Shown in pieces: positions 1 through 52,065 of a stretch of 64,000 bases of DNA (positions are counted from its first letter, which is position 1; each line of letters starts with the position of its first letter). The stretch lies in contig DASZZD010000059.1 in assembly GCA_035545015.1 (NCBI GenBank), positions 58,864 to 122,863 of the forward strand. Direction: 5' to 3'. The stretch comes from Phycisphaerae bacterium. GTDB taxonomy: Bacteria; Planctomycetota; Phycisphaerae; WQYP01. Under the pieces are notes generated by a model that was not told where the DNA came from, searched no databases, and worked only from the letters and a program-made list of their open reading frames with translations. Position numbers and translations under genes: made by a program.

Positions 1-859
1 GCCCCACAAACGTCCCGCCGCAGATGAACAGGATGTTCGTCGTGTCCACCTGAATGTACTGCTGCTCCGGATGCTTCCGCCCGCCCTGTGGCGGCACATT
101 CGCCAGCGTCCCCTCCAGCATCTTGAGCAGCGCCTGCTGCACGCCTTCCCCGCTCACATCCCGCGTGATCGAGACGTTCATGTTCGTCTTGCCGATCTTG
201 TCGATCTCATCAATGTAAATGATCCCGCGCTGCGCCGACTCCAGATCGTAATCCGCGTTCTGCAGCAGCTTCAGCAGCAGGTTCTCCACATCCTCCCCCA
301 CATACCCCGCCTCCGTCAGCGTCGTCGCATCCCCGATCGCAAACGGCACGTTCAAACACCGCGCCAACGTCTTCGCCAGCAGCGTCTTGCCTGAGCCCGT
401 CGGTCCGATCAACAGCACGTTGCTCTTATCAATCTCCACCTCTTCCCCGCCCGCCGCATCCGCATGCGCCAGCCGCTTATAATGATTGTGCACCGCCACC
501 GCCATCGCCCGCTTCGCCGCATCCTGTCCGATCACGTACTGATCCATGAACTCCTTGAGCTGCCGCGGACTCGGAATCTGACCGAACATCGGCCGGCTTC
601 CGGAAACCTTCCGCTTCTCCTGCCGAAATATGTTCTGGCACAGCTCCGTGCAGTTCGAACAAATGTAAATGTCGTTCGGCCCCTCCACCATCGGCCCCAC
701 CTCCCGCGACGATTTCCCGCAAAACGAGCAGTTCGTCACCTTCCGGCCCCGAAACCCGCCCCCGCCGCCTCCGCCGCCCCCCACGCTCCCCCCGCCCGAC
801 CCGCCGATCGATCCGCCGTTCCCCACGCCGCCGCCGCCATTGCCCGGTTGATTCGCCAT
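1..859 (-). CDS. clpX: ATP-dependent Clp protease ATP-binding subunit ClpX (N-terminal ~285 aa; C-terminus lies beyond window start)
   Basis: Minus-strand translation gives zinc-finger CSFCGKS...CSNCTELC, Walker [20 protein letters not shown] and IYIDEIDKI; start MANQPG at 859, preceded by a ~35-aa Gly-rich leader. Confidence 0.9.
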
Positions 860-1027
860 GAAATCAGCTTCCTATGCCTGCGCAAGATGGACTGTGTGCG
901 CCGACAACGCCTCCCCACACGCCACGATCCGTTCCAATGTTCGCACGTGCAAAAAAGGCAAAGCCAGCGCCACTATCCATTTATCATAGAGTTTGTCGGC
1001 ATGGCCGTCCAACCGCGGCCATCTTTT

Positions 1028-4561: not shown

Positions 4562-4645
4562 GCCCTGTTTCCCTGTCCCCATCGCCATGCCCGCTGACCC
4601 CCAAAATCCGACGCACCTTTTCAAAAATCGCGAAAAATTCCTATT

Positions 4646-5368
4646 TCAGCGATTTTCAAAGAACGCCCGCACCCACGCCGCGGCCGAATCCATCGCAAAC
4701 GGTTTGCCCGTCCAGCCCTCGGCAGTGGCAGCCGGAACGCTGATCGCCGCAATTCCCGCCGAACGCGACACCACCACCGCCGTCGCCCCCTCGCCCAGCT
4801 CCAAAGCGTAGCGAGCGTACTCCTTTTTGTGCAGACCCGTTGTCGCCCGCCGGGCAAGATCCTGCGCAACGGCCGACCATTGCTCAGCCCACACCACCAG
4901 CACGCGCTCCGCACGCCCCGTCGCCAGCAGCCGCCCCGCCGCCGTCAGCGCGCCCGCCACCGCATCCTCGGGCGCAAACGCCAGCGTTTCGCACGGCCCC
5001 TTGATGCCAAACGCAATCGCCACCGCCGCCGCGATGCTCGAATACACGCTGCGCGAAAACAACCGCGGCGATGCGAATTTTCCCCCGGCCTCAAACATGC
5101 TGTCGAGATACCCCACCGTCGCATCGATCGCCCCCCACGCGCTCACGCAGATCAATCCAATTTCTTCCCCCGAAACCTCCACCGAATCGCTCATCGTCCA
5201 CGCCTGATGGGCCGCCCGGATCGCCAGCGCCGCCAGACGTTCTTGCGCCGCCACCTTTTCCACGGGCAAAATGTCGCAGCCGGGCGCGTGGGGAGCCACC
5301 TCCGCGATCGCCGCCACCTCGTCGGTAACGATCCCCGCCCCCGCAAGATACAAGACCCGCTCCATCAC
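4646..5368 (-). CDS. Truncated beta-ketoacyl synthase-like protein lacking the TACSS active-site Cys (chain-length-factor/ApeC-like partner)
   Basis: 240 aa with KS-like GIKGPCETLAFAPEDAVAGALTAAGRLL but no catalytic Cys/His half; ATGA overlap with the upstream KS gene. Confidence 0.7.
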   Translation of the reverse strand: MMERVLYLAGAGIVTDEVAAIAEVAPHAPGCDILPVEKVAAQERLAALAIRAAHQAWTMSDSVEVSGEEIGLICVSAWGAIDATVGYLDSMFEAGGKFASPRLFSRSVYSSIAAAVAIAFGIKGPCETLAFAPEDAVAGALTAAGRLLATGRAERVLVVWAEQWSAVAQDLARRATTGLHKKEYARYALELGEGATAVVVSRSAGIAAISVPAATAEGWTGKPFAMDSAAAWVRAFFENR

Positions 5369-6618
5369 CCTTCCTCCCGCGCGAACACCAGCGCCGTGTT
5401 GTTGCCGCCAAACGCAAAATTTGTGGACATCACCGCGCGCAGAGAACGCTCGCCACCCGCGTATATATGGTTGCGCGGCACAGGAAGCCGCATCGCGGGA
5501 TCGCCATCCCCTTCCTCACTCCCCGCATTCGGTGGGATGCAATTTTCACGGAGGGCCTGAATGCACAGAATCGCCTCCACCGCTCCCGCCGCCCCAAACG
5601 TGTGCCCGGTGCAGCGCTTCGTGGAACTCACCATCGGCAGCGGCGAGATGTTGCCGAAAAGCGTCCCCAGGGCGGCGGCTTCCATGGCGTCGTTGTCCTT
5701 CGTCCCGGTGCCATGGGCGTTGATGTAACCAATGTCGGCAGCCTGCAACCGGGCCCGTGCCAACGCATCGCGCATGGCGCGAATCGCCTGAACCCCGGCA
5801 GGATCGGGAGCGGTGATATGGTAGGCATCGCACGTGACGCCAAAGCCGCGCAAATAGGCAAGGATCGGAGCGTTGCGGGCGCGGGCGTGATCCGGGTGCT
5901 CCAGAATCAGCATGCCGGCGCCTTCGCCAACGGTCATGCCCGGACGATGCGCATCGAACGGCCGGCAACCCTCCGGGGCCGTCACTTTGAGCGCGTGAAA
6001 CCCCGACAACACCACCCGGCAAAGCGCTTCACTGCCCCCCACCAGGGCAATCTCGCATTCGCCCAACGCAATCGCGTCCGCGGCCGCGCCGATCGCCATG
6101 GCGCTGCCCACACACGTCGTCAGGCACACCTCCCGCAGCCCGGGCGAACGCGCCATGCGGTGGCGCCGGGCGAGCAGTTCGCCCACTTCGTAAGGCTGAA
6201 GCCGGCGCATGAGGCGGATATCGGCGGTGTCCGGGTTCTGCCGATATTGCGCGGCGAAGCGTTCGTTTTTGTCCATGCCGCACACGGTCGTGGCGACAAA
6301 CAGGCCGATCTCCTCGCCGTCGCCTTCGCGGAAACGCTCGGGGAGGCGGGCGTCGGCGAGGGCTTCGTCGGCCGCGAGGCAGGCGAGCTGCTGCGTGCGC
6401 GACAGGGCGTTCCAAAGGCGCGGGGGCAAATCGGCGGGGCAGGGTAGGTCGGCGGCACACCGGGCGACCTTCACGGAGCGCAGCGGATGGCCGGCCTCAA
6501 TTTCGGGCCACGGTTGCAGGACGTCGCGGGCGGCGGCGACGCCTTGCCATGTCACGGCAACGCCGATGCCCTGGGCGGTGACCGCCCCCATTCCTGTAAT
6601 GGCCACCGCTGAAGTCAT
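5365..6618 (-). CDS. Beta-ketoacyl-ACP synthase (KAS I/II family, FabF/ApeO-like)
   Basis: 417 aa; Cys in TTCVGSAMAIG, His motifs INAHGTGTKDND and GHTFGAAGAVE, C-terminal NFAFGGNNTALVF. Confidence 0.85.
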   Translation of the reverse strand: MTSAVAITGMGAVTAQGIGVAVTWQGVAAARDVLQPWPEIEAGHPLRSVKVARCAADLPCPADLPPRLWNALSRTQQLACLAADEALADARLPERFREGDGEEIGLFVATTVCGMDKNERFAAQYRQNPDTADIRLMRRLQPYEVGELLARRHRMARSPGLREVCLTTCVGSAMAIGAAADAIALGECEIALVGGSEALCRVVLSGFHALKVTAPEGCRPFDAHRPGMTVGEGAGMLILEHPDHARARNAPILAYLRGFGVTCDAYHITAPDPAGVQAIRAMRDALARARLQAADIGYINAHGTGTKDNDAMEAAALGTLFGNISPLPMVSSTKRCTGHTFGAAGAVEAILCIQALRENCIPPNAGSEEGDGDPAMRLPVPRNHIYAGGERSLRAVMSTNFAFGGNNTALVFAREEG

Positions 6619-6624
6619 AAGGCG

Positions 6625-7677
6625 TCACTTCTTGATGCCGTACATGTCGGGCGTGGCGGGGAGGATGGTGATCGATTCGATGACCGGCTTGGGTCCCTTG
6701 ACGGTGCCGTTGTCGTCGGAGACGGGGGTTTTGGCGATTTCGTCGACGACGGGCATGCCGTCGATGACCTGTCCGAAGGCGGTGTATTGGCCGTCGAGGT
6801 TGCTGTTTTTGGCGTGCATGATGAAGAACTGGGAGCCTGCGGAGTTGACGTCCTGGGAGCGCGCCATGGAGAGCACGCCGCGATCGTGTTGTTTGTCGGA
6901 GAACTCGGCGGTGATTTCGTAGCCGGGGCCGCCGGTGCCGGCGCGTCCCTCGACGTTGCCGGTCGAATCGCCGCCCTGGATCATGAAACCTTTGATGATG
7001 CGATGGAAAACGCTGCCGTCGTAGAACTTCTGGCGGGCAAGATTGATGAAATTGTCATCCGTGTGCGGAGCGACGTCGTAGGCAAACGTGACCTTGATGT
7101 CACCTTTATCCGTTTTGATGACGGCATATTGGAGCGGAACGATGTGCAGCACCGTGGGGCTGTAGCGCTGCAGGATGTCTTTTCGCTGGGCGTCCGGCAG
7201 GCCGCCGATTTCATTCTTGAATTTTGCGAATTCCTTGGCGCCCTGGCCGGGGTTGTAGAGGTTTTCGATCACGAGGGGCTCGGCATCTTTCCAGACGAGG
7301 ATGTAAGTGCCGCCGGAGCGGATGTCGGGATAGATGTTGTCGAGATTGATTTTGGTGGGATCGGCGCCGGGCGTTCCCGTTTTCGGATCGACCTTCTGGC
7401 CGTCGAAGGTGTAGAGGGTGAAGGCGGGCATGCCTTTGTCGTCGAGCGCATCTTTCGCGGGAGTGTAACCGTCCTTCAGGGCGGAGGCGTCATCGGCGAG
7501 GTGCACCGCTTTGGTGGGACCGTTGTAGAAGCCGAGGAGGAGGGGTTCATCGGGTTTGTCGTACCATTTGACGGGAAGGACGACATCGGCGCGGGCGGCG
7601 GTGGCGACGGCGCCGAGCAGAAGGGAAGAAAAGGCCGTTGCGAGGAATGCTTTTGTGAATTTATGCCGGGCGAGCAT
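6625..7677 (-). CDS. Secreted cyclophilin-type peptidyl-prolyl cis-trans isomerase with ~170-aa N-terminal extension
   Basis: C-terminal HRIIKGFMIQGGD...FFIMHAKNSNLDGQYTAFGQV cyclophilin fold; signal peptide MLARHKFTKAFLATAFSSLLLGAVATAARA (start at second Met, 7677); 7-bp gap to the KS gene. Confidence 0.85.
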   Translation of the reverse strand: MLARHKFTKAFLATAFSSLLLGAVATAARADVVLPVKWYDKPDEPLLLGFYNGPTKAVHLADDASALKDGYTPAKDALDDKGMPAFTLYTFDGQKVDPKTGTPGADPTKINLDNIYPDIRSGGTYILVWKDAEPLVIENLYNPGQGAKEFAKFKNEIGGLPDAQRKDILQRYSPTVLHIVPLQYAVIKTDKGDIKVTFAYDVAPHTDDNFINLARQKFYDGSVFHRIIKGFMIQGGDSTGNVEGRAGTGGPGYEITAEFSDKQHDRGVLSMARSQDVNSAGSQFFIMHAKNSNLDGQYTAFGQVIDGMPVVDEIAKTPVSDDNGTVKGPKPVIESITILPATPDMYGIKK

Positions 7678-7895
7678 GAGGGTCTCCGGAAAAGAGTTGA
7701 TGTGAATGGGAGATTGTATGCGGAAAGTTGCGCAAGGGGGAGGCTGGCGACGGCGGAGTGCGTTGTGTGTGACGGTTTTGCGGGAACTCGAGCGACAGAC
7801 ATCCCACAATGCATGAAATCTTACGCAAGCGCTTCTCCTGAGAGGCTGCCACATGTGGTTGATACGAAGACGGAAGCACTTCTTGCGACGTTGCG

Positions 7896-9497
7896 TTAGT
7901 GTGGGGCGGCTGCGGCTTGTTTGGCGGCGGCGCGCTGGTAGTAGGCGTAGCGGTCTTTGCCGCCGAGGGTGGGCAGGTCGATGTCGTTGCCAAATTGTTT
8001 GGAGAGGTCGAGGAAGGCCTGGTATTGGCGGCAGAGGAAGGCGGCGTTGAGGAGGGCGCTGCGGTCCTTGAGGTAGAGCGGCCGGTCGTCGGTGAGGCGG
8101 GACTTGTCGGAGAGGACGACATTGTAGGCGGCGTGGAGGTCCTGCCAGACCTGGGGGTCCTGGTAGAGGGAACCGGGGGGATCGACGAAGCCGTTGAGGC
8201 TTTGATAGACGGAGACGATGGTGAGGGAGATGCGGTTACGGGGGGTTCCGGTTTTGATGCATTGGCGGCCGAAGGTGACGGCGTCGGAGGGGTCGTTGTG
8301 CCACTGGGGGGAGAGGTAGAAGGCTTTGTTATCGCAGGCCTGGAAGTCGTCGGGGTCGGCGAGCATGGCGCGTTGGAACCAGGATTCCATGGTGTCGTCG
8401 CCGAGCTGGAGGTCCATGGAGAGGCGGACCATGTAGTCGGAGGCGGCGGCGTCGAAGGGGTCTTCGTGCCAGGCGGCCTCGGCGGCGTCGCGGGCTTTTT
8501 TGCAGCGTTCGTCGAAGAGTTGCCAGCCCTGGTCGGAGACGGTGTCGGCATATCCGCCGCCGCGGGCGACCCAGCCCCATTCTTCATAGAGGACGGCGAG
8601 GGCGACATCGCGTGCGGCGGTATGGGGGAGGACTTGATCGAGAACGGGTGTGAGTCGCGGGATGGCGGCTTCGGGGCCGGGCTGGTGGACGAGGGCGAGG
8701 CTGATGGCGAGGACGTTTCGTTCGAGGCGGGCCTGTCCGGGATGCTCGGCGACGAAGGCGGGCAGCAGCGCCAGGACGCGGGCGAGCTCCGAGTCGCTGG
8801 TGGCCTTGACGGTGACGTTGGAGGGCCAGTGGACGGAGTTCATGCAGGAGAGCAGCCAGCGGTGGAGGATGAATTTGACGCCGTCGGAGTAGGAGGAGTT
8901 GTCGAGCGCGGCGATGGCGGGATCGAGTTGTTTGACGGCGTGGTCAAGGGCCATCTGCTCGGAATTGAGGCCGTCGATGACATAAGCGAGATGGATGGCG
9001 GGGTCGCCGGGCTGGATATTGGCGGCGGCCTGAGCATCGATGGCGGCTTTGAGGGTGGGGTAGTCGATTTTGTCTGCGGCGATAACCCGGAGGGCGGGTT
9101 CGATTTTGTCGAGGATCTGTCCGCCGGTGGGGCCGTTTTTGTAGGGTGTGAGGAGGTAACGCTGGGTCCAGGCGTCATCGCGTTTTTGGTCACTGGCGGA
9201 GCGCGCGGCGCGGAGGTGTTTGGCGAGGTCGGGGAGGTTGGCGGCGAGGACATCGCGGACGGCGGGGCCGGTGTCGGGGCTGGCGGCGGCTTCGACGAGG
9301 GGAGCGAAGGCGTCGGCGGGAAGCGAGGGGATACGTGCGGTGGCGCTGTCGCGGGAGTCTGGATTCTGGAGTTGCTGGAGAAAGGCGGGGGCGTCGAAGG
9401 AATGGTCATCCGGGGTTTGGGCGTGGGCGAGCAGGGCGAGAAGCGGGGCGAGGGTGAGGGCGAGGGCGGCGGCGGCGAATGGTGGCAGGGGTTTCAT
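7896..9497 (-). CDS. Hypothetical secreted protein (possibly DUF4034-like)
   Basis: 533-aa ORF with cleavable signal peptide MKPLPPFAAAALALTLAPLLALLAHAQ; non-repetitive composition; the opposite-strand 666-aa ORF is a Gly-rich shadow. Confidence 0.6.
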   Translation of the reverse strand: MKPLPPFAAAALALTLAPLLALLAHAQTPDDHSFDAPAFLQQLQNPDSRDSATARIPSLPADAFAPLVEAAASPDTGPAVRDVLAANLPDLAKHLRAARSASDQKRDDAWTQRYLLTPYKNGPTGGQILDKIEPALRVIAADKIDYPTLKAAIDAQAAANIQPGDPAIHLAYVIDGLNSEQMALDHAVKQLDPAIAALDNSSYSDGVKFILHRWLLSCMNSVHWPSNVTVKATSDSELARVLALLPAFVAEHPGQARLERNVLAISLALVHQPGPEAAIPRLTPVLDQVLPHTAARDVALAVLYEEWGWVARGGGYADTVSDQGWQLFDERCKKARDAAEAAWHEDPFDAAASDYMVRLSMDLQLGDDTMESWFQRAMLADPDDFQACDNKAFYLSPQWHNDPSDAVTFGRQCIKTGTPRNRISLTIVSVYQSLNGFVDPPGSLYQDPQVWQDLHAAYNVVLSDKSRLTDDRPLYLKDRSALLNAAFLCRQYQAFLDLSKQFGNDIDLPTLGGKDRYAYYQRAAAKQAAAAPH

Positions 9498-12587: not shown

Positions 12588-12647
12588 TGGCGGTAAATGG
12601 CCACGAAAAACACGAAGGGCACGAAAGACGTGGTAATTGCTATGACC

Positions 12648-19705: not shown

Positions 19706-20626
19706 ATGCAGAGCAATTGGCGTCGGGAACGGGCGAATCTGGCACTGATTATCACGTGCGGGGCGGTGGGCCTGGCGGTGGCGGTGCCGGCGATCGGGCA
19801 GGCGCGCGGCAACGCGCAGCGGACAGCGTGCGCGTCCAATTTGCATCAGTTGGGCATCGCGCTCAATACGTATGCGGCGGAGTTTGATTCATGGATGCCG
19901 CTGACGGGGACAAACTCGGCGACGCGCTACAACGTGCGGATGGCGGGAGACAAGGCGCCCAAGGGCGAGGCGCTGACGGACAACGATCCGTCGGCGGCGT
20001 TGTGGCTGGTAGTCGCCGACGGGATTGTCCGGCGGACGACGGTGTTTTTGTGTCCGGCGGATCCGTTTGCGGGACCGAATGGCGGCGGGCAGGCGGCGGC
20101 GCTGAAGGATGACAGCGGCAAGGCATACGAGACGTTTCAATCCGGCAAACAGTTGAGTTATTCGTCGCGCTATCCATGGACGGAGACGGACAAGGCGGCC
20201 AAGGCGGGTCCGTGGATGAGGCTGGTCACCATTCCGAGAGATGAGCCGGTGATGACGGACATGGCGCCTTACCTGAGTGCGAAGGCGCAGGCGGGGGAAG
20301 CGGTGACCGGACCGGCGGCGGCCAGTGCGCCGGCCGGGGGCAACGGCGGGCTGGTGCTGGGCGGCGGCTTGGACGCCGGACCCATGGTGAATTCGCCGAA
20401 CCACAACCAGGAAGGGCAGAACTTGTTGTTCGGAGATGCCCATGTCGAGTGGTCGGACGCGCCGCACTGGCAGGGGACGGGCGATCATTTGTGGACCGAA
20501 GTGGTGGATGACAAGCAGGTGGCGATCGATGCGGGGGAACTGCCGGCGGTGATTCCCGGCGGGGCGAAGGGGCCGTATGACATTGTGATGGTGCCCACAC
20601 GCTCGGCCAAGGGGGAATTGAAGTAA
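19706..20626 (+). CDS. DUF1559 / H-X9-DG-type prepilin-like protein
   Basis: N-terminal hydrophobic pseudopilin-like helix plus QRTACASNLHQLGIALNTY, and C-terminal HNQEGQNLLFGDAHVEW (H-X9-DG-like); family typical of Planctomycetota/Verrucomicrobiota. Confidence 0.7.
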   Translation: MQSNWRRERANLALIITCGAVGLAVAVPAIGQARGNAQRTACASNLHQLGIALNTYAAEFDSWMPLTGTNSATRYNVRMAGDKAPKGEALTDNDPSAALWLVVADGIVRRTTVFLCPADPFAGPNGGGQAAALKDDSGKAYETFQSGKQLSYSSRYPWTETDKAAKAGPWMRLVTIPRDEPVMTDMAPYLSAKAQAGEAVTGPAAASAPAGGNGGLVLGGGLDAGPMVNSPNHNQEGQNLLFGDAHVEWSDAPHWQGTGDHLWTEVVDDKQVAIDAGELPAVIPGGAKGPYDIVMVPTRSAKGELK

Positions 20627-20638
20627 CGGCGCGGGAGT

Positions 20639-21229
20639 TCAGGGAGCCGCGGGTTGAGTGGCGGGGCGGGCTTGGGCGAGTGCGTTGTAGCGTTGGACGG
20701 CGTCGTTGCGCTGGGAGATGAGGGACTGGATCGAGGCGGCGGCCTGTTTGAGCTCATCGACGGCTTTGTTGTATTGGGTGGCGAGATCGTTGTAACGGGA
20801 GACGGCGGCGTTGCGGTCGGCGGCGAGGGCTTCGACGCGCGCGGCGGAAGCTTTGAGGGCGGCATCCCGGGCATTGACGGCGGCGCTCCATTGGGTGAGG
20901 GCTTTTTTCTGTGCGTCGACCGTGGCCTGGAGGTCCTTGCGCTGGCTGGTGAGCCTGGCGACATCCTGGCGCGCGGTGTCAAGGTCTTTTTGGGTGGATT
21001 GGAGGGCGTCGTCGGTGCGGTTGATGCGGCTGCGGAATTCATCGAGATCGTCGTGGAGAGCGGCGATGGTTTTGGTCTGATCGTCGAGTTTGGCGGTGAG
21101 CGTTTGTTGGGCGGCTTGAGCGCCGAGGAGTTCGAGGTGGAGGGTGCGCGAGGCGGACCACTGGATGGCGCAGAGGCTGGCAAGAGTGAGCACGCCGAGG
21201 AAATTGATGCAGGTGAGAACGGTTTTCAT
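20639..21229 (-). CDS. Coiled-coil protein with N-terminal signal anchor (ExbBD-TonB operon accessory)
   Basis: MKTVLTCINFLGVLTLASLCA anchor, then Q/A/L-rich heptad coiled coil; 4-nt overlap with the exbD stop. Confidence 0.55.
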   Translation of the reverse strand: MKTVLTCINFLGVLTLASLCAIQWSASRTLHLELLGAQAAQQTLTAKLDDQTKTIAALHDDLDEFRSRINRTDDALQSTQKDLDTARQDVARLTSQRKDLQATVDAQKKALTQWSAAVNARDAALKASAARVEALAADRNAAVSRYNDLATQYNKAVDELKQAAASIQSLISQRNDAVQRYNALAQARPATQPAAP

Positions 21230-21672
21230 GGGGTGGGTGCTCCTGCGGCGACGGGTGTGTTGCCGATTTCGAAGGCGACTTTGTCGATGCCGGCGAGACG
21301 CGCCGCATCGAGCGCGCGGATGACGTCGCCGTGATGGGCGTCCTTGTCGGCGCTGATGAAGACGCGAAGGGCGGGGTTGGCCTGCCGGGCGGATTGGAGG
21401 GTGGCGGTGAGCTCATTGGTGGCGACGGGTTTCTTGTCCAGGAACAGACCGCCGGTTTTGTCGACAGAGATGTCGGCGTAATCCTTTTTGACATCGGTGG
21501 CGGCGGAAACGGCGGTGGGGAGGTTCACCGGGACGCTTTTGAGGTTGACCATGGAGAGGCTCACGAGCATGAAGGAGGCAAGGAGGAAGAACATGATGTC
21601 GATGAGGGGGATGATTTCGATGCGCGCTTCGGCGTTGTCCTGATGGAGGGTGGAGGAGAGTTTGAGGGGCAT
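21226..21672 (-). CDS. exbD: Biopolymer transport protein ExbD/TolR
   Basis: IEIIPLIDIMFFLLASFMLVS TM helix and periplasmic domain with ALRVFISADKDAHHGDVIRALDAARLAG. Confidence 0.85.
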   Translation of the reverse strand: MPLKLSSTLHQDNAEARIEIIPLIDIMFFLLASFMLVSLSMVNLKSVPVNLPTAVSAATDVKKDYADISVDKTGGLFLDKKPVATNELTATLQSARQANPALRVFISADKDAHHGDVIRALDAARLAGIDKVAFEIGNTPVAAGAPTP

Positions 21673-21690
21673 GGGAGGCCTTTCGATTGG

Positions 21691-22365
21691 TCAGTGGTCA
21701 GCGGTCAGGGAGGGGGTGAAGGATTCGAGGTCGTGGCCGTGGTGTTTGGCGGAGTGGGCGAGGAGTTCAGCGTGGTTGATGGTGCGTTCGAGGCGTGAGC
21801 GAAGGTGGGCGATGCGGCGGTTGAAGAAGTTGTAGGGCAGGAGGCAGAGGATGGCGATGGAGAGGCCGCAGGCGGTGGCGATGAGAGCTTCGGCGATGCC
21901 GCCGGAGACTTTGGAGGCGGCGAGTTGCTGGTCGCCGACGAAGCTGAAGGATCGCATGATGCCGGTGACGGTTCCCAGGAGGCCCAGGAGCGGGGAAAGG
22001 GTGATGAGGGTTCCAAGGATCCATTGGAGCCGCTCGGCGTGGGTGAGTTCATCGGAGGCTTTGAGCTGCATGGCGCCCAGGAAGGAGGAGCGGGCGTGGA
22101 GGAGGCCGGCATGGAGGGTGGAGAGGAAGGGATCGGCGGGGTTGTTGGACAGGCGGAGTGCGTCGGTGAAGCGGCCATCGGCGAGGGCGTCGAAAGTTTG
22201 GTCGAGAGTGTCGGCGTGCGTGCGCCGGCGGAGGTTGGCCCACCAGAGGGAGCGTTCGAGGATGACAGTGAGGGCGGCGAGGAGCGCCAGCAGGATGGGC
22301 CACATGATGGGGCCGCCCTTGATAAAGTAATCGACGAGGAGGTTTGCGAGCGGGGGGATGTGCAT
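21691..22365 (-). CDS. exbB: MotA/TolQ/ExbB proton-channel protein
   Basis: Three-TM ExbB pattern with [14 protein letters not shown] and [17 protein letters not shown]. Confidence 0.85.
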
Positions 22366-42547: not shown

Positions 42548-43200
42548 GGCTGGAAAAATACAAAAACCAAATCCTCTTGCCCCCGCACCTCCATTGCTGC
42601 TCTTCGTGGCCCTTCGTGTTCCTCGTGTTCTTCGTGCTGAACGTCGTCGGCTGCAAGCGCCAGGACATGGCCGACCAGGCCCGCTTCAAACCCTTCGCAC
42701 CCAGCAGCTTCTATCCCGATGGCGCTTCCGCCCGCCTCCCCGTCCCCCACACCGTCTCCCGCAGTACCCCCGACATCAACCTCGACGAAGGCCAGCTCTG
42801 GCAAACCGCTCTCCCCCTCACCACCCCCGCTCCCTTCCCCATCACCCCCGCCGATCTCCGCCGCGGACAGCAGGTCTTCACCATCTACTGCACCCCTTGC
42901 CACGGCCAGCTTGGCGACGGCAACGGCATGATCCCCCAGCGCGGCTTCCTCCACCCGCCCACCTACCACTCCGACCGTCTCCGCAACGCCCCCGACGCCT
43001 ACTTCTACAACGTCATCACCAACGGCATCGGCGCCATGTACCCCTACGCCGACCGCGTCGCCCCCGATGACCGCTGGCGCGTCGTCGCCTACATCCGCGC
43101 CCTGCAACTCAGCCAGTACGCCCCTCCCCAGGACGCCCCCGGCGCCGCCCCAACCGCAACCGCCCCAGCAACCGGCAACGGTAGGGGGGCTACGCCATGA
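42544..43200 (+). CDS. actE: Alternative complex III subunit ActE (monoheme cytochrome c lipoprotein)
   Basis: ATGA overlap; lipobox NVVGC; single CTPCHG heme motif. Confidence 0.8.
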   Translation: MRLEKYKNQILLPPHLHCCSSWPFVFLVFFVLNVVGCKRQDMADQARFKPFAPSSFYPDGASARLPVPHTVSRSTPDINLDEGQLWQTALPLTTPAPFPITPADLRRGQQVFTIYCTPCHGQLGDGNGMIPQRGFLHPPTYHSDRLRNAPDAYFYNVITNGIGAMYPYADRVAPDDRWRVVAYIRALQLSQYAPPQDAPGAAPTATAPATGNGRGATP

Positions 43201-44393: not shown

Positions 44394-44898
44394 CGCCCCA
44401 CGCCCCGCCCCCGCCTCCATCCACGCAGGTCACGAACTCAAAGGCGTCGCCCACCGCGGCATCGGTATCTTCATCCTCTGGTTCTTCGGCACCGCCGTCG
44501 CCCTCTTCATCCTCCTCTGGCTCTTCCTCGCCTACGAAGTCCACCGCGAATCTCGCAATGAGGCCGGCCCCTTCGCCCTCGGAACCGACCGCCCCACCAC
44601 CCTCCCTCAGCCCCTCCAGCCCAGTATCGCCCGCAACGTCCTCCCCTGGCAGGACCTCCCCCCGCTCCGTGACGGCCAGCTCCAACACCTTAATTCCGCC
44701 GGCCCCATCCCCGGTGACCCCGCCCACGTCCACATCCCTATCGACCACGCCATGCAGCTCTTCCTCCAACACGGCGGCCTGAGCACCAAACCCAACCCCG
44801 CCGCCACCACCCCCGCCTCCCCCCCCCGCTCCGCCGAAACCCAACCCTGGATCATCCCCAACCAGGACCGCCCACGCACTGTGGAGAACCGCACATGA
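44386..44898 (+). CDS. Small single-TM membrane protein (possible ActG-like subunit)
   Basis: Start MPDAPRP at 44386, overlapping the actF stop; one TM (GIGIFILWFFGTAVALFILLWLFLAY); position matches ActG of some ACIII operons. Confidence 0.45.
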   Translation: MPDAPRPAPASIHAGHELKGVAHRGIGIFILWFFGTAVALFILLWLFLAYEVHRESRNEAGPFALGTDRPTTLPQPLQPSIARNVLPWQDLPPLRDGQLQHLNSAGPIPGDPAHVHIPIDHAMQLFLQHGGLSTKPNPAATTPASPPRSAETQPWIIPNQDRPRTVENRT

Positions 44899-45848
44899 CC
44901 CGCGTCAGCGCAATTACCCATTACCATTTACCAATTACCAAAACGCTCCTCGCGCTGACCCTCCTCCTCGCCGCCGCCCTCCCCCTGCGCGCCGAAGTCC
45001 CCACCGCCTCCACCCGCCCCGCCCAGCTCGACGGCGTCAAAATCATCCAGCTCCTCGGCCACAAAGTCCCCGGCGATATCCAGTTCCACGACGAACACGG
45101 CAACACCGTCACCCTCGCACAACTCCAGTCCGGACGCCCCGTCGTCCTCGCCCTCGTCTACTTCTCCTGCCCCGCCCTCTGCACCGTCATCCTCAACGAC
45201 ATGCTCTCCACCCTCAAGGTCATGCCCCTCACCCTCGGCAAAGATTACGACGTCTGGACCATCAGCTTCGATCCCCGCGAAACCCCCGCCGTCGCCTCCG
45301 CCAAGCACGACGAATACGTCCGCGCCTACGACCACACCAAATACTTCGGCAACGCCGCACCCCTCGGCAACACCGGCGCCAACTGGCATTTCCTCACCGG
45401 CGACCAGGCCAACATCACACGCCTCACCCAGGCCGTCGGCTTCCATTACAAATGGGACAACGCCTCCCAGCAGTTCTATCATCCCGCCGGCCTCACCATC
45501 CTCTCCCCCGACCGCACCATCTCCCGCTATTTCTTCGGCGTCAATTTCGAACCCACCGATCTCCGCCTCTCCCTCGACGAAGCCGCCCACGGAAAAGTCG
45601 GCTCCATCACCGACACCATCCTCCTCTGCTGCTATCACTACGATCCCACCACCGGCCGCTACGGCCTCGCCGTCGTACGCCTCCTCCAGATCTTCGGCGC
45701 GCTGACCATCCTCGTCATCGGCGGCGGCCTCGCTTACCTCTTCCACATCGACCGCCGACGCACCAGGGCGCTCCTCCCAGCCTCCACACGCTCCGCCCGC
45801 ACCTCCGTCAGCCTCGGATCGCCCGCGCCGGGGAGGCCCTATGAATAA
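44895..45848 (+). CDS. sco1: SCO1/SenC copper chaperone (thioredoxin-like)
   Basis: CPALC (CxxxC) motif with downstream His, signal peptide; 5' end overlaps the heptamer-repeat array, so the start is uncertain. Confidence 0.75.
   Translation: MTRVSAITHYHLPITKTLLALTLLLAAALPLRAEVPTASTRPAQLDGVKIIQLLGHKVPGDIQFHDEHGNTVTLAQLQSGRPVVLALVYFSCPALCTVILNDMLSTLKVMPLTLGKDYDVWTISFDPRETPAVASAKHDEYVRAYDHTKYFGNAAPLGNTGANWHFLTGDQANITRLTQAVGFHYKWDNASQQFYHPAGLTILSPDRTISRYFFGVNFEPTDLRLSLDEAAHGKVGSITDTILLCCYHYDPTTGRYGLAVVRLLQIFGALTILVIGGGLAYLFHIDRRRTRALLPASTRSARTSVSLGSPAPGRPYE
44911..44943. repeat. CAATTAC heptamer tandem array (copy 1, at the 5' end of sco1)
   Basis: caattac-ccattac-catttac-caattac-caaaacg. Confidence 0.6.
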
Positions 45849-46809
45849 CGGCTTCCATCTCGTCCCCCCGCGCGCCTCCACGATGGCTTACCACATCGAC
45901 AGCCTCGTGCTGTTCCTCCTCTGCGTCACCGCCTTCTTCACCATCCTCATCTTCACCCTCATCATCGTCTTCGTCGTCAAGTACCGCCGCAAACACCCCT
46001 CCGACATCGGCAAAAATATCGGCGACCACCACTGGCTCGAATGGACCTGGATCATCATCCCCTCCCTCATCGAAGTCGTTATGTTCGTCTGGGGCGCAGC
46101 TCTCTACATCCGCATGTCACGACCCCCCGCCAACGCGCTCGAAATCCAGGTCATCGGCAAACAGTGGATGTGGAAAATCCAGCACCCCTCAGGCCGCAAG
46201 GAAATCGACGAACTCCACGTCCCCGTCGGTCGCCCCATCAAGCTCGTCATGACCTCCCAGGATGTCATCCACTCCTTCTTCATCCCCGACTTCCGCATCA
46301 AACAGGATGTCGTCCCCGGACGCTATTCCACCGAGTGGTTCACCCCTACCCAGATTGGACAGTACCACCTCTTCTGCTCCGAATACTGCGGCACCGGCCA
46401 CGCCAGCATGGCCGGCCGCGTCGTCGTCATGTCCCCCGGCGACTACGCCAAGTGGGAAGCCGACGTCCCCCTCGACCAGTCCCCCGAAGCCTCCGGCGCC
46501 AAGCTCTTCCTCCAGTACGGCTGCATGACCTGCCACGGCCAGCAGGCCCCCTCCCTCGCCGGCATCTACGGCCGCCAGCAAACCATGTCCACCGGCGAAG
46601 TCGTCACCGTCGATGACAACTACCTCCGCGAATCCATCCTCAACTCCCGCGCCAAAATCGTCGCCGGATACCCCCCCGTCATGCCCGGCTATCAAGGCCA
46701 ACTCTCCGAAGAACAGGTCATGGACCTCATCTCCTACATCAAATCCCTCAAAGGCGCCGCCACCCCCCCCGCCCCCAACCTCCCCCAAAACGGAGGAAGC
46801 CCGCCATGA
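45841..46809 (+). CDS. coxB: Cytochrome c oxidase subunit II with C-terminal cytochrome c domain (caa3-type)
   Basis: CuA site HSFFIPDF...[12 protein letters not shown] plus CMTCHG heme c domain; 2 TM. Confidence 0.9.
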
Positions 46810-46831
46810 TCCGCCCAAGCGCATCGAAGTC

Positions 46832-46865
46832 CCAATTACCAATTACCAATTACTCAATTACTTCG
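46832..46865. repeat. CCAATTA heptamer tandem array (copy 2, coxB-ctaD intergenic)
   Basis: ccaatta-ccaatta-ccaatta-ctcaatta-cttcg; the 20-mer ccaattactcaattacttcg matches the right arm at 50964-50983. Confidence 0.65.
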
Positions 46866-46873
46866 AGCCTGCT

Positions 46874-48559
<1,686 letters not shown>

Positions 48560-48560
48560 C

Positions 48561-48593
48561 CCAATTGCCAATTACCAATTACCAATTACTTCC
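48561..48593. repeat. CCAATTA heptamer tandem array (copy 3, ctaD-coxC intergenic)
   Basis: ccaattg-ccaatta-ccaatta-ccaatta-cttcc. Confidence 0.65.
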
Positions 48594-48608
48594 CTCGAAC
48601 GGTGCAAA

Positions 48609-49247
48609 ATGACCAGCACCCCCTTCATCCACCACCAGTTCGACGACGCGCTCCAGCAACGCGAAGCCGCCACCCTCGGCATGTGGACCTTCCTCGCCAC
48701 CGAAGTCCTCTTCTTCGGCGGTCTCATGATGTCCTACGTCATCTACCGCTACACCTGGCCCGAAGCCTGGGTCGAAGGCTCCCACCACCTCAAGGAATAC
48801 CTCGGGGCCACCAACACCGGCGTCCTCCTCACCTCCTCCCTCACCGTCGCACTCGCCGTCCACTTCACCCAGCTCAAAGCCCGCATCCCCACCCTCGTCT
48901 GCCTCATCCTCACCCTCATCCTCGGCCTCTGCTTCCTCGGCATCAAAGGCACCGAATACGTCATCGAATATCACGAGCACCTCATCCCCGCCATCGACTA
49001 CCACCCCACCGACGTCATCGACATCCGTCACGTCCAGCTCTTCATGCTCTTCTACTTCCTCATGACCCTCCTCCACGCCACCCACATGACCGTCGGCATT
49101 GGCCTGCTCGTCTTCCTCATCATCCAGGTCTCCCGCGGCCGCTACGTCGACGGCAACCCCAACCACGTCGAAATCATCGGCCTCTACTGGCACTTCGTCG
49201 ACCTCGTCTGGATCTTCCTCTTCCCACTCCTCTATCTGGTGAGATGA
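48609..49247 (+). CDS. coxC: Cytochrome c oxidase subunit III
   Basis: 5-TM subunit III pattern ([18 protein letters not shown]...[14 protein letters not shown]...[19 protein letters not shown]). Confidence 0.9.
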
Positions 49248-49648
49248 TGTCCGAGGAATCCCACAAAATCATCACCATACCCTGGATGTTCATCGTCTAC
49301 ATCGCCCTCATGATCCTCCTCGGATCCACCATCCTCGCCGCACATTTCACCATCGGCGCCCTCGGCCTCCTCATCGCCCTCATCATCGCCGCCACCAAGG
49401 CCTTCCTCGTCATCCTCTATTACATGCACATCCGCGTCGAATCCCGAACCACCTGGATCTTCGTCGGCGCCGGATTCATCTGGCTCACCATCATGATCTG
49501 CCTCACCGCCGGCGACTACGTCACACGCCCCTGGCTCGCACGCACCGACGAAGTCAACCCCCACGAATCCATGATCATCCCCCCGCCCCCTGGCATGCGC
49601 CGCCAACCCCCCCAATCCCCCACCATCATCCCCTTCCAAAACCGCTGA
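49244..49648 (+). CDS. caa3-type cytochrome oxidase subunit IV-like small membrane protein
   Basis: ATGA overlap with coxC; MMSEESHK start at 49244; three hydrophobic helices. Confidence 0.6.
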
Positions 49649-49796
49649 ATCTAAAACTATTCATTCGTGTCAATGTGTATGACTATCTCAAAACTCCTCC
49701 CTTCGCCCACAAGATCGTCCCGCCGCAATCCCATCATCGGCGTCCATCGGTCGTCCCTCGCCAGCCACATCCCGCTCCCTCCAATCCTCCCACCTC

Positions 49797-49943
49797 CATT
49801 CGTGTAAATTCGTGCACATTCGTGGACACTTCCCGTCGTCGTCCCCTTTCGTGTTCTTCGTGCCTTTCGTGGCCATTTACGTCGTCGTCGGGGGAGGTGG
49901 GGGGGACCCGCCGTCGTCCTCCGTGCCCTCCGTGCGCTCCGTG
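49797..49943. repeat. Periodic YTCGTG direct-repeat array (3 blocks of 3 units, 9-10 bp period) interleaved with CGTCGTCGTC motifs, upstream of the FNT gene
   Basis: cattcgtg/taaattcgtg/cacattcgtg ... tttcgtg/ttcttcgtg/cctttcgtg ... cctccgtg/ccctccgtg/cgctccgtg, with ccgtcgtcgtcc, acgtcgtcgtcg and ccgtcgtcct spacers. Confidence 0.7.
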
Positions 49944-49994
49944 GTTAACTTTTAATTGCCGCCTCGCCCCGACATGAACTTTCGTGGAGCGGTT

Positions 49995-50870
49995 ATGCCC
50001 GAAACCTCCCAGCAAACCCAGGCCAAGGTCGATAAACGCAAGTCTCCTTCCGGCAAAATTCTCTACGGCGCCATCGTCGCCGAAGCCGAGGAAGAACTAG
50101 ACCGCCCCTCCTCAGGCCTCTTCTGGTCCGGCCTCGCCGCCGGACTCTCCATGGGCTTCTCCATCTTCACCATGGCCCTTATCCACTCCCACCTCCCCCA
50201 CGAAAAATGGGCCCCGCTCCTCGTCAGCTTCGGCTACTCCCTCGGTTTCCTCGTCGTCATCCTCGGCCGCCAGCAGCTCTTCACCGAAAACACCCTCACC
50301 CCCATCCTCCCCCTCCTCCGTCGCCCCTCCGTCTTCGTCTTCTTCAACGTCCTCCGCCTCTGGATCGTCGTCTTCGTCGCCAACATGATCGGTGCCTGCG
50401 CCATGGCCCTCGTCCTCGCCAAATGCCCCGTCCTCCCCGAAGAAGCCCGCAAAAGCCTCATCGAGCTCTCCATGCAGGGCATGCACAAACCCTTCGGCAC
50501 CATGGTCCTCCGCGCCATCTACGCCGGCTGGCTCATCGCTCTCATCGTCTGGCTCTTGCCCTTCGCCGAGGCCGCACGCATCTGGGTCATCATCATCATC
50601 ACCTACGTCGTCTCCCTCGCCGAGCTCCCCCACTCCGTCGCCGGTGCCGTCGAAGCCTTCATCACCTCCTGGCACGGCGATGCCTCCTGGCCCGATGCCC
50701 TCTTCGGCTACATCGCCCCCACCCTCATCGGCAACGCCATCGGCGGCGTCACCCTCGTCGCCGCCCTCAACCACGCCCAGGTCCTCGCCTCCGGCGAATC
50801 CCTCGACACCGCCCACCAACAATCCCAACAATCTCAACAATCCCAACCCAAAGACACCGGCCTCCCCTGA
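49995..50870 (+). CDS. Formate/nitrite transporter (FNT) family channel
   Basis: FNT signatures GRQQLFTENTL (ELFTGN-like), LPHSVAGAVE (FEHSIANM-like), IGNAIGGVTLV; 6 TM; ORF 49956 with probable start at MPETSQ. Confidence 0.8.
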   Translation: MPETSQQTQAKVDKRKSPSGKILYGAIVAEAEEELDRPSSGLFWSGLAAGLSMGFSIFTMALIHSHLPHEKWAPLLVSFGYSLGFLVVILGRQQLFTENTLTPILPLLRRPSVFVFFNVLRLWIVVFVANMIGACAMALVLAKCPVLPEEARKSLIELSMQGMHKPFGTMVLRAIYAGWLIALIVWLLPFAEAARIWVIIIITYVVSLAELPHSVAGAVEAFITSWHGDASWPDALFGYIAPTLIGNAIGGVTLVAALNHAQVLASGESLDTAHQQSQQSQQSQPKDTGLP

Positions 50871-50877
50871 CCCCCTC

Positions 50878-50983
50878 GAAGTAATTGAGTAATGAAGTTA
50901 ATTGAGTAACTGAGACCCGCGATCCCAACCCCCGCATCGCTAGTCCCAATTACTCAATTAACCCAATTAACTCAATTACTTCG
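50878..50983. repeat. Inverted pair of CAATTAC heptamer-repeat arms around a GC-rich spacer (large hairpin, MITE-like or bidirectional terminator) between convergent genes
   Basis: Left arm gaagtaattgagtaatgaagttaattgagtaactgag; right arm cccaattactcaattaacccaattaactcaattacttcg; the arms are approximate reverse complements. Confidence 0.6.
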
Positions 50984-51938
50984 TCCCCCTCCTCCTCCCC
51001 ACCATCACCACCGCCCCCATCACCAGCACCCCCACCGTCGCCGGCTCCGGCACCTCCGGCGCCGTCGCAAACACCGTCCCCGAATCCGCCGTATAACTCG
51101 CCAACGGATCATCCGAAAACACCACAAATTGCGCCGTGTTCCCCGCATCGATCACCGCCTGACCGTCCCCCAGATTCGCAAACGCATCCGCCTGCAACGT
51201 CGCATCCACGGAAATCGCCACGCCTCCGCCCCCCGGCACGAAAAACGTCACCGCCTCCGTCGGCGCTGTCGAATCGTTGATCACCGTCCCGTCCGCGTGC
51301 AGCGATTTCGTCACCCCCAACCCCAGCGTCGTCAGCGGCATGTTCGGAAGACCGTGAATCACCGCCGACGCCGATACCTCACCCGTGAAAAAACCCCCAA
51401 ATACCGCATCCCCCGTCGTAAAATTTCCCTCCGGCGTCACCGCCACCTCCAGCGACAACTCCAGCGTGAACTTCGACCCCACCGGATTGCTCGACGTGAA
51501 ACGCAAAACATCCCCCCACTTCACCGTGTCCGCCGCATGCGCGTTCGCCACCCCGTCCGCATCGATCGAATCCGCCCCCCCAGCATCCGAAAACGCCGAA
51601 ATCGTCGAATGCAACGCCCCGATCTCCGCCTCATCCTCCACATTTCCCCCCGCCGCCTGGGGCTCCAGCAACATCTTGTCCGGTATCCACGCCGTCCCCG
51701 ACGTGTTCGCAAACGTCGTCCCCGTGATCCTCGTCTTCGCCACCTCCCCGTCGCTCGAAAAATTGTGGCTATCCATCCCCTGATTCCCCATCTCCGTCCC
51801 ATCCACCACCACCCCAACCCCCGCCGACGCCGTCACCGCCCCGTTATCCTGCACATAAAAACCCTCTGCCCCCGTCCCCCCCGCCATCACCGCCGCCCCC
51901 GCCACAACCACCCACAAAAAACCGCGCTGCCGCCTCAT
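50976..51938 (-). CDS. PEP-CTERM sorting-domain secreted protein
   Basis: C-terminal VPEPATVGVLVMGAVVMVGRRRGTK (PEP + TM + Arg cluster); signal peptide MRRQRGFLWVVVAGAAVMAGG from Met 51938. Confidence 0.75.
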   Translation of the reverse strand: MRRQRGFLWVVVAGAAVMAGGTGAEGFYVQDNGAVTASAGVGVVVDGTEMGNQGMDSHNFSSDGEVAKTRITGTTFANTSGTAWIPDKMLLEPQAAGGNVEDEAEIGALHSTISAFSDAGGADSIDADGVANAHAADTVKWGDVLRFTSSNPVGSKFTLELSLEVAVTPEGNFTTGDAVFGGFFTGEVSASAVIHGLPNMPLTTLGLGVTKSLHADGTVINDSTAPTEAVTFFVPGGGGVAISVDATLQADAFANLGDGQAVIDAGNTAQFVVFSDDPLASYTADSGTVFATAPEVPEPATVGVLVMGAVVMVGRRRGTK

Positions 51939-52065
51939 ACCCAGCTCCTTCTTTCCGACCACACCTCAATCCACAAACCCACAACCCACCACCATACTCC
52001 CCGCCACCCCTCTTGTCATCCATATTTCTACGCCTTTCGATACAAAGCATGCCGCCCCAAAGGTG

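Follow-up and report, generated by a model that had tools for sequence, protein, structure and literature searches.

Tandem repeats of heptanucleotides have been known for decades from cyanobacteria, Xanthomonas and Beggiatoaceae, and their function is still unsettled. They include the short tandemly repeated repetitive (STRR) sequences of heterocystous cyanobacteria and the ‘long simple sequence repeats’ (LSSR) of Mrazek et al. (2007), both taken here as they are cited in PMC4692102 and PMC4679880. For heptamer simple-sequence repeats, over-representation, intergenic location and frequent inverted pairing are documented (PMC4692102; PMC4679880); GGGAATC and GGGGA(T/C)T heptamers recur in Xanthomonas and Nostoc (Rehm et al. 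2015, PMC4692102), and heptamer repeats of other units lie near start codons in Nostoc (bioRxiv 10.1101/2022.06.06.494920). TAACTGA repeats occur next to start codons, without a Shine-Dalgarno (SD) sequence, in marine Beggiatoaceae, cyanobacteria and Bacteroidetes (MacGregor 2015, PMC4679880); a translational role with S1, cold-shock proteins (Csp) and CsrA as candidate binders has been proposed, and an effect on translation has not been demonstrated in published work (PMC4679880). Here we analyse a 64,000-nt stretch of a Phycisphaerae (Planctomycetota) contig, hereafter the window, in which four loci, A1 to A4, carry tandem repeats in and directly behind an operon for alternative complex III (ACIII) and the cox genes. 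The four loci form one family of heptanucleotide tandem repeats of the STRR/LSSR class, with the unit CCAATTA; they extend a known repeat class to a new phylum and do not constitute a new kind of element. That the arrays act as SD-less leaders, or as parts of relay mini-open reading frames (mini-ORFs), is a reading to which we give an even chance.

CCAATTA arrays in an ACIII-cox operon

Arrays were called with Tandem Repeats Finder (TRF), and motif counts were compared with shuffles of the window. The window has 14 occurrences of the heptamer CAATTAC where 2.07 were expected, and all shuffles stayed below 14; the 14-mer CCAATTACCAATTA, with at most 3 mismatches, occurs 10 times against 1.29 expected. 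In a fuzzy scan, all CCAATTA-type arrays of the window lay inside one 6-kb stretch and the remaining 58 kb held no dispersed copies of this type; the simulated probability of four loci clustering in 6.1 kb is p = 0.003. A1 to A3 consist of head-to-tail 7-nt units in at least three copies, above chance, and the arrays are mostly non-coding, A2, A3 and A4 being intergenic and A1 lying in frame in the 5' end of sco1. The preliminary description had reported tandem 7-mers at all four loci, which holds for A1 to A3; the arms of A4 are degenerate, with a period of 8-9 (TRF calls at 50878-50914 and 50945-50978, AGTAATTG × 4.2 with 75% matches and CCCAATTAA × 3.9). Its 20-mer CCAATTACTCAATTACTTCG, said to be common to A2 and the right arm of A4, is exact in A2 only and is matched at 17 of 20 positions by the right arm, and equally by the left arm read on the minus strand, while the 14-mer core ACTCAATTACTTCG is indeed shared exactly. 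A sense (CCAATTA)n tract has no stop codon in any frame and its complement has TAA in all three; A1, A2 and A3 all stand on the sense strand, the only stop-free orientation. A search of the literature for the string found the CCAATTA tandem sequence in none of the papers of the library covered.

The operons of relatives were then compared with that of the window junction by junction, the relatives being ranked by identity of their CtaD to that of the window. Close relatives, on which the preliminary description had made its proposal depend, are divided: arrays stand at all four places in L122 (96%), and CCAATTA arrays are absent from L123 (88%), L249 (83%) and L124 to L126 (80%), which have plain ATGA overlaps or short SD-containing spacers at the array sites, coxB/ctaD being a direct ATGA overlap with a GGAG-type SD ahead in every one of them. 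The arrays are lineage-specific insertions at gene boundaries of the operon, made between the divergence of the 88% relative and that of the 96% relative. At the window's coxB/ctaD junction, the end of coxB keeps the ancestral SD and ATGA, followed by a 64-nt insert and a second ATGAC that opens an otherwise unchanged ctaD (MTLIAP). As the comparison shows, the ctaD and coxC inserts entered at the ancestral start/stop overlap, ATGA(CC), of which a second copy was formed. ATGACC opens all three invaded cistrons, and coxB and coxD, which open differently, carry no array. The A2 insert is bracketed by ATGA(T/C)C, with 14 and 7 extra nt separating the brackets from its inverted termini.

A1 departs from the other arrays in being translated. 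Three arrays had been placed exactly at cistron junctions, which is true of A2 (coxB/ctaD) and A3 (ctaD/coxC); the actG-like/sco1 junction is an ATGA overlap at 44895-44898, and A1 lies downstream of it, as codons 6-16 of the sco1 open reading frame (ORF). Its translation, AITHYHLPIT, precedes the hydrophobic segment of a signal peptide or transmembrane helix (N-terminal reading across A1: MTRVSAITHYHLPITK, then the hydrophobic segment). The array part of A1 is identical in the window and L122, and the codons just 3' of it have diverged, with a 12-nt indel. A1 is also identical, including unit number, on contig L001 of a metagenome-assembled genome (MAG) of the same species, a contig that does not reach A2 and A3. 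It is absent from sco1 of L123, L124 and L249, the relatives' Sco1 beginning MTRTFSLLL without AITHYHLPIT.

The operon runs in the order ACIII (actA-G-like)-sco1-coxB-ctaD-coxC-coxD, followed by a formate/nitrite-transporter (FNT) gene and then a convergent gene (Table 1). The gene identities given in the preliminary description (ACIII actA-G-like, SCO1, COX2, COX1, COX3, COX4) agree with Pfam families on the orthologous locus of L122, and CtaD is 100% identical to a Phycisphaerae MAG protein and 96% identical to a protein of GCA_035548175.1. The GC content, earlier put at about 67%, ranges from about 58 to 69% along the window, with a mean of roughly 64%. Tight overlaps at the operon's other junctions are present as reported; they measure 4 or 8 nt or 1 nt and are not all ATGA. 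The coding strand of the operon is extremely C-rich (GC skew about -0.4), and across the window the skew is about -0.4 under plus-strand genes and +0.3 to +0.5 under minus-strand genes, switching near 6 kb, 30-34 kb and 53 kb; with so extreme a strand skew, the mRNAs are very C-rich and G-poor.

Table 1 Coordinates of arrays, inserts and genes in the window, with the repeat units found at the corresponding junctions of the 81% relative L251
Feature	Position	Strand	Remarks
sco1 (SCO1/SenC) ORF	44895..45848	+	ATG overlaps stop of upstream actG-like gene (ATGA)
A1 array	44911..44941	+	TRF period 7, 4.4 copies, 83% matches; CAATTAC unit, degenerate
coxB (COX2 with cytochrome c domain)	45841..46809	+	stop TGA 46807-46809 overlaps ATG of mini-ORF 1
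Relay mini-ORF 1, 23 codons	46806..46877	+	starts on ancestral ctaD SD and ATG(A); TGA overlaps present ctaD ATG
A2 insert, 64 nt	46810..46873	+	non-repeat left flank, 7-bp inverted termini TCGAAGT/ACTTCGA, array
A2 array	46832..46861	+	TRF period 7, 4.1 copies, 95% matches; (CCAATTA)3 plus CTCAATTA
ctaD (COX1)	46874..48559	+	
Relay mini-ORF 2, 18 codons	48556..48612	+	ATG overlaps ctaD stop; TGA overlaps coxC ATG
A3 insert, 49 nt	48560-48608	+	ATGACC on both sides
A3 array	48561..48589	+	TRF period 7, 4.1 copies, 95% matches; CCAATTG plus (CCAATTA)3
coxC (COX3)	48609..49247	+	
A4 left arm	50878..50914	+	antisense-type units GAAGTAATTGAGTAATGAAGTTAATTGAGTAACTGAG; 8 nt past formate/nitrite-transporter stop
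A4 GC-rich spacer	50915..50944	.	hairpin loop region
A4 right arm	50945..50983	+	CCCAATTACTCAATTAACCCAATTAACTCAATTACTTCG; last unit is TAA stop (50976-50978) of convergent minus-strand gene
Convergent PEP-CTERM-type gene	50976-51962	-	stop from A4 right arm
L251 actD/actE			GAAACGC / CGTTTCG
L251 sco1 5' end (A1 position)			(AAAACTC)7.7
L251 sco1/coxB			GAATGAC / ATTCGTC
L251 coxB/ctaD			AATGACG / TTCGTCA
L251 ctaD/coxC			GACAAGGA / TGTCCCCT
L251 coxC/coxD			TGGTGAAG / CCACTTAA

Conservation, copying and turnover of the inserts

Of 1232 third codon positions compared between the window and L122, 163 differ (13.2%); at first and second positions the figure is 3.3%. The A2 insert is unchanged over all of its 64 positions and the A3 insert has 2 changes in 49, and these 2 differences in 113 have P = 1.8e-5 at the synonymous rate; the GC-rich non-repeat flanks of the inserts taken by themselves differ at 0 of about 55 positions (P = 4e-4), and the neighbouring coxD-FNT spacer is only 77% identical. 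The low divergence of A2 and A3 relative to synonymous sites indicates constraint. Phase-variable contingency repeats, in which 7-nt slippage would switch sco1, ctaD or coxC on and off, were already disfavoured and are hardly credible. In their favour, a 7-nt unit is not divisible by three, one array (A1) is within an ORF and the frame relations of A2 and A3 depend on copy number; however, the unit number of A1 to A3 is identical in the window and L122 despite 13% synonymous divergence, that of A1 is the same again in L001, arrays of about 4 copies slip rarely, and core respiratory genes are unlikely targets for a switch.

Traces of copying connect the loci. In the window, the right arm of A4 has both a non-repeat prefix (CGCATCG..AGTCCCAATTAC) and a suffix (ACTCAATTACTTCG) in common with A2, whereas the right arm of A4 in L122 shares with A1 the sequence CCCGCGCCAGCG (CCCGCG(C/T)CAGCG) and a CCATTTA-type array. 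The right arm of A4 is thus A2-like in the window and A1-like in L122, with junctions at short homologies (..CCCGC), which means that the same site received different sister arrays in the two lineages; and because the copies share non-repeat flanks, they were copied between loci and did not arise by independent slippage. Sequence exchange between array loci is shown by these shared segments, and the sharing pattern fits ectopic conversion or template switching. Single copies are plausibly what is left of doublets: A2 corresponds to the right half of A4 with 7 nt remaining from the left terminus.

These observations lead to the main rival of a role in translation, namely that the arrays are selfish or neutral repeats, either simple-sequence DNA or DNA resembling miniature inverted-repeat transposable elements (MITEs) or REPINs, spread by slippage, template switching or transposition and tolerated where harmless, an explanation we regard as possible and distinctly less than an even bet. 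The absence of the arrays from the 88-80% relatives, which keep plain overlaps, speaks for it, as do the copying of arrays between loci together with their flanks, the duplicated ATGA/ATGACC brackets and the perfect 16-bp inverted termini of A4 (CGAAGTAATTGAGTAA / TTACTCAATTACTTCG; A1 and A3 are without terminal inverted repeats). Against it, the A2 and A3 inserts, GC-rich flanks included, evolve about 7 times more slowly than synonymous sites, and the other 58 kb of the window is without dispersed copies, no search having been made for a transposase or a REP-associated tyrosine transposase (RAYT). The MITE-like family suggested in the preliminary description is accordingly supported in part, by the shared termini and flanks, the brackets and the inverted termini of A4, and lacks dispersed copies in the window.

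The unit itself is not conserved, which also favours selfish repeats. In the 81% relative L251 (ERZ12293633 scaffold_4616, 370-8080), different 7-8-nt arrays occupy every ACIII-cox junction (Table 1), mostly as inverted pairs that could form hairpins and are followed by an SD and an ATG; gaps there reach 277 nt where other relatives overlap by 4 nt, and a further pair, (CACAGAGG)/(CTCTGTGA), lies between the ornithine decarboxylase gene and ffh. L123 has another unit at ctaD/coxC (3566-3660), a GACAAGG-type pair of (GACAAGGT)3 and inverted (GTCACCGT)4 with a predicted hairpin of -39 kcal/mol (z -3.3), the first array of which extends the C-terminus of CtaD, and L249 has (AAAACGC)4 at actD/actE. 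In L122, an array of (CATTTGT)x4.6 at 20064-20096 separates an aldo-keto reductase gene from a GFO/IDH/MocA oxidoreductase gene and stops 13 nt short of the ATG of the latter. Gene-boundary arrays are thus a property of the lineage, with units that turn over and without limitation to respiratory genes. Because the same operon is available in close relatives with inserts, without inserts and with different inserts, the clade constitutes a natural experiment.

Tandem repeats of other kinds are also present in the window. A heptamer array, (CTGACCN)x3, at 21688-21708 on the minus strand occupies the junction of an exbB-like gene (21691-22365, minus) and an exbD-like gene (21226-21672, minus); the TGA stop of the exbB-like gene comes from the third unit, the next ATG is 18 nt further, and the unit resembles the CTGACCA arrays of relative L250. 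A second family, built on TTCGTG or TCCGTG in tandem units of 9-10 nt, is found at 49798-49945 (plus), 12590-12645 (minus) and 42600-42640 (plus). Three such triplets in the coxD-FNT spacer are conserved in L122. The set at 42600-42640 falls within the part of the actE-like gene that encodes its lipoprotein signal peptide, where L122 has (GTCTTTC)6 and L250 (TCTTCGTG)4; with tandem repeats at this site in all three, the hydrophobic signal segment is repeat-encoded.

Start codons, putative relay mini-ORFs and the inverted pair

A role at start codons is suggested by the arrays of other genomes. A scan for (CCAATTA)3 across one genome per species gave at least 120 loci, and a metagenome scan that required a CTTC end likewise gave at least 120. 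Orientation was assessed on 130 arrays of (CCAATTA)>=3 at loci below 50% GC, mostly cyanobacterial; this set and the counts from other genomes that follow are counts among the matches listed. In 47 of the 130, a sense array shortly preceded the start of an ORF with 100 codons or more, at distances from -1 to +54 nt (median about 7, with 40 of these arrays no further than 17 nt away), whereas antisense arrays were start-proximal in only 5, all at 35 nt or more (47 against 5, binomial P = 1e-9), and gene ends were equally frequent on either side of the arrays (35 against 36). An SD-like motif accompanied only 2 of 51 start-proximal cases, drawn from the 130 low-GC arrays and 10 arrays at GC>=0.5. 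The 42 closest start-proximal cases precede 38 unrelated protein families, and with this spread the idea that the motif marks respiratory operons is not supported. The strong sense-strand, start-adjacent bias also counts against selfish repeats.

The same bias bears on explanations at the level of DNA. Regulator binding arrays, one of the options in the preliminary description, are disfavoured by the preference for one strand and for start codons and by the lack of promoter-like sites. Taken more broadly, DNA-level signals would comprise arrays bound by a transcription factor or by a nucleoid protein, or else AT-rich promoters within the operon that serve ctaD and coxC. The arrays are AT-rich islands in a GC-rich genome, and heptad repeats are regulator sites in some other systems, for example at the ctxAB promoter and for Streptomyces antibiotic regulatory proteins (SARP). 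We nevertheless consider such signals very improbable: a scan for sigma-70-like promoters and terminators gave no match at any array, the strand is strongly biased to the downstream gene, the arrays abut the start codon and are not in promoter position, a period of 7 bp does not keep step with the helical turn of DNA, and one copy is inside a coding region.

In the window, A2 and A3 have the orientation and position of the start-proximal arrays elsewhere. The A2 array ends 12 nt before the ctaD ATG and the A3 array 19 nt before that of coxC, both in sense orientation and with no canonical ribosome-binding site before the start: no SD stands between the A2 array and the ctaD ATG, which is preceded by CUUCGAGCCUGCU, and only a weak GGUG precedes the coxC ATG. 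In every relative, a GGAG-type SD lies 6-12 nt before the ctaD ATG; in the window, this SD precedes the mini-ORF ATG instead. Old and present ATG are 68 nt apart at ctaD and 53 nt apart at coxC, and since both spacings are 2 mod 3, the stop of each mini-ORF overlaps the real start. Both arrays are predicted to be unstructured.

From this arrangement we infer the following course of events. Each A2 or A3 insert would appear in the mRNA as a G-free, unstructured (CCAAUUA)n leader 12-19 nt before the AUG, in the place of the SD. The old SD and AUG would start a mini-ORF of 23 or 18 codons that reads through the stop-free array to a UGA overlapping the real AUG, and termination-reinitiation would relay ribosomes across the coxB/ctaD and ctaD/coxC boundaries. 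Loading without an SD on the single-stranded A/U/C-rich tract, by S1-type binding as on the omega leader of tobacco mosaic virus (TMV), may help. A cold-shock protein is a speculative candidate for a binder of the arrays: the cold-shock domain binds 6-7 nt, and an early claim that it has high affinity for ATTGG/CCAAT did not hold up, the binding proving weak (Kd about 5 µM; PMC1904285). Among the options of the preliminary description, unstructured translation enhancers for genes that are not coupled is the best supported, though indirectly, through the start bias, the loss of the ctaD SD and the conservation of the inserts; against it, the genes are probably still coupled through the relay mini-ORFs, and the predicted accessibility of the start region is not improved.

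A4 differs from A1 to A3 in being an inverted pair. The earlier account of two arms around a GC-rich spacer between convergent genes is borne out by a long predicted hairpin of -46.8 kcal/mol (z -13.2) on the plus strand and -63.7 kcal/mol (z -10.9) on the minus strand. CCCCCT flanks A4 on both sides, possibly by chance in C-rich DNA, and the left arm contains TAACTGA and TAATTGA units. Covariance models of Rfam gave only chance matches below the gathering score (E 0.2-0.8), one of them that of a miRNA model to the A4 hairpin. The convergent gene has a PEP-CTERM-like sorting signal at the C-terminus of its product (VPEPATVGVLVMGAVVMVGRRRGTK, then the stop), the last two codons and TAA of the gene coming from the terminal unit of A4; in L122 the array also supplies the stop of this gene, two codons earlier. 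The REP, BIME and REPIN elements (repetitive extragenic palindromic sequences, bacterial interspersed mosaic elements and REP doublets forming hairpins) of proteobacteria are short intergenic elements inside operons, and their inverted doublets form long hairpins. Between the convergent genes, the A4 hairpin would most likely act as a REP-like barrier at the 3' end, or would simply be tolerated.

Such a barrier leads to a further rival, in which the arrays would segment the polycistronic mRNA and set subunit stoichiometry through RNA processing or stability, as single-stranded entry sites for RNase E/G or Y, with the inverted pairs as RNase III substrates or 3'-exonuclease barriers in the manner of E. 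coli REP/BIME. A very stable predicted hairpin at the 3' end of the transcription unit is what this rival would expect, as are junction arrays in L251 and L123 that are mostly inverted pairs folding in the gap from a stop codon to the following SD, the presence in other genomes of an inverted partner no more than 150 nt away for 14-23% of arrays, and the predicted lack of structure in A2 and A3. It is nonetheless improbable in our judgement, as A1 to A3 are without an inverted partner, the A4 hairpin is not conserved in L122, and start adjacency and strand bias elsewhere point to initiation and not to cleavage.

Several results weigh against a role of the arrays as leaders or relays. The evidence for mini-ORF translation and reinitiation is entirely geometric. 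The frames observed at A1 to A3 would arise by chance with P about 0.3, two of three frame outcomes being viable, so that mini-ORF frame statistics were not counted as evidence of selection, and the agreement with chance is equally what selfish repeats would give. Accessibility of the start region (-20..+12), as mean predicted P(unpaired), is 0.37 for ctaD and 0.52 for coxC, against 0.42-0.67 in array-free relatives. Relatives manage without arrays, which are therefore not required for the operon. In GC-rich metagenome contigs, 24 arrays were sense and 20 antisense, in a set that had been selected for the CTTC end and has noisy ORF calls. Three composition-matched control heptamers gave 17, 29 and 8 loci in viral contigs against 12 for CCAATTA, a parity that also favours selfish repeats. 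Slower mutation of AT-rich sequence in a GC-rich genome may explain part of the low divergence of the arrays; it would not account for that of the GC-rich flanks. At A4, the hairpin is weak in L122 (z -1.95 and -2.55), the element having been remodelled between the lineages, a rapid turnover that would again suit selfish repeats, and A4 does not have the make-up of an intrinsic terminator, a GC-rich hairpin with a U-tract behind it, its hairpin being AU-rich, without a U-tract and followed by CUUCGUCCCCC on the plus strand and GAGGGGGUC on the minus strand.

Two candidate ideas were given up in the course of the analysis. With an array, the 100-nt start region as a whole has a lower folding energy, and the proposal that the array opens the start site was dropped when the predicted unpaired probability at -20..+12 proved not to be raised. 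CCAATTA as a special cross-phylum unit was rejected, control heptamers being as frequent in viral contigs; the unit itself is probably not special. A wider proposal is that tandem G-poor heptamers are a general, cross-phylum platform for SD-less initiation, read by a single-stranded-RNA-binding factor with a footprint of about 7 nt (S1 or a cold-shock domain), selection in this clade acting on the presence of an array at each junction and not on its sequence. Selection on presence would explain why arrays persist while units turn over (CCAATTA, AAAACTC, GAATGAC, GACAAGG and others), and also why inserts diverge below the synonymous rate and ATGA coupling was replaced by relay mini-ORFs; even so, we find the proposal doubtful.

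What the locus adds is an ancestral start/stop overlap that is still visible, inserts whose constraint can be measured, and the extension of the phenomenon to Planctomycetota. If the leader and relay reading is true, the arrays would be a simple and portable SD-less way to start translation; if it is wrong, the locus documents simple repeats that invaded gene boundaries and were then copied between them.

Arrays in other genomes and comparison with known systems

Among the matches listed, about 100 (CCAATTA)3 loci are in filamentous cyanobacteria (Nostocales and Oscillatoriales), and the other hosts are Chloroflexota, a Planctomycetales MAG, Acidobacteriota, Bacteroidota, bacteria of the candidate phyla radiation (CPR) and Gammaproteobacteria. 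A Planctomycetales contig of 66.6% GC carries (CCAATTA)10 ending 1 nt before a GTG start. Contigs of 50-68% GC carry many of the metagenome matches listed, 23% of which have an inverted partner. One metagenome contributed long contigs of 57-60% GC with many CCAATTA arrays (L191, L140, L198 and L204); on L191 (Ga0101944_10000053, 387 kb) five arrays lie within 13 kb, and several arrays of such contigs are hairpin pairs or stand directly before an SD and ATG. In Chloroflexota and other GC-rich contigs (L085, L098 and L243), arrays of 3-4 units lie inside long ORFs in the stop-free orientation, one of them in the ATPase domain of a histidine kinase; these may be translated as PITNYQL-type insertions.

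Among the known systems closest to the arrays are the repeats of the STRR/LSSR class, with head-to-tail 7-nt units in a few to tens of copies, mostly intergenic and at many loci in repeat-rich lineages, and with the identical unit (CCAATTA)>=3 at more than 100 filamentous-cyanobacterial loci. In contrast to these, the host here is a GC-rich member of the Phycisphaerae, the arrays are short, with about 4 copies, and they are found in a polycistronic respiratory operon on former ATGA overlaps, one of them translated in Sco1. The GGGAATC-type repeats are likewise intergenic, often between co-directional genes and often in inverted pairs, and keep their positions while length and sequence vary between relatives; they are, however, G-rich and form G-quadruplexes, which CCAATTA arrays, G-free on the sense strand, cannot. 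With REP, BIME and REPIN elements, the comparison extends to A4 and the pairs of L251, which are comparable to inverted doublets, although a REP unit is an imperfect palindrome and the arms here are tandem 7-9-mers without dispersed copies in the window.

For translation, the omega leader of TMV offers a parallel in the manner of working only. By the title of a 1989 report by Gallie and Kado (cited in PMC5382211), it is said to be functionally equivalent to an SD sequence, and it is reported to take the place of one in E. coli. The leader is G-poor and unstructured; ACAAUUAC is present in it three times, with a run of AUUAC that abuts the AUG (PMC9502800). CAAUUAC is the heptamer repeated in A1 to A3, and the two may work alike; in contrast to the arrays, omega is a plant-virus leader, without evolutionary relationship to them, and contains a poly(CAA) tract. 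TAACTGA repeats resemble the arrays in their fixed orientation a few nt upstream of the start, in replacing the SD and in preceding unrelated genes, including essential ones. They differ in having stop codons in the forward orientation, where CCAATTA is stop-free and readable in its gene-proximal orientation, and in belonging to other phyla, whereas the arrays of the ACIII-cox operon stand between overlapping cistrons and create relay mini-ORFs.

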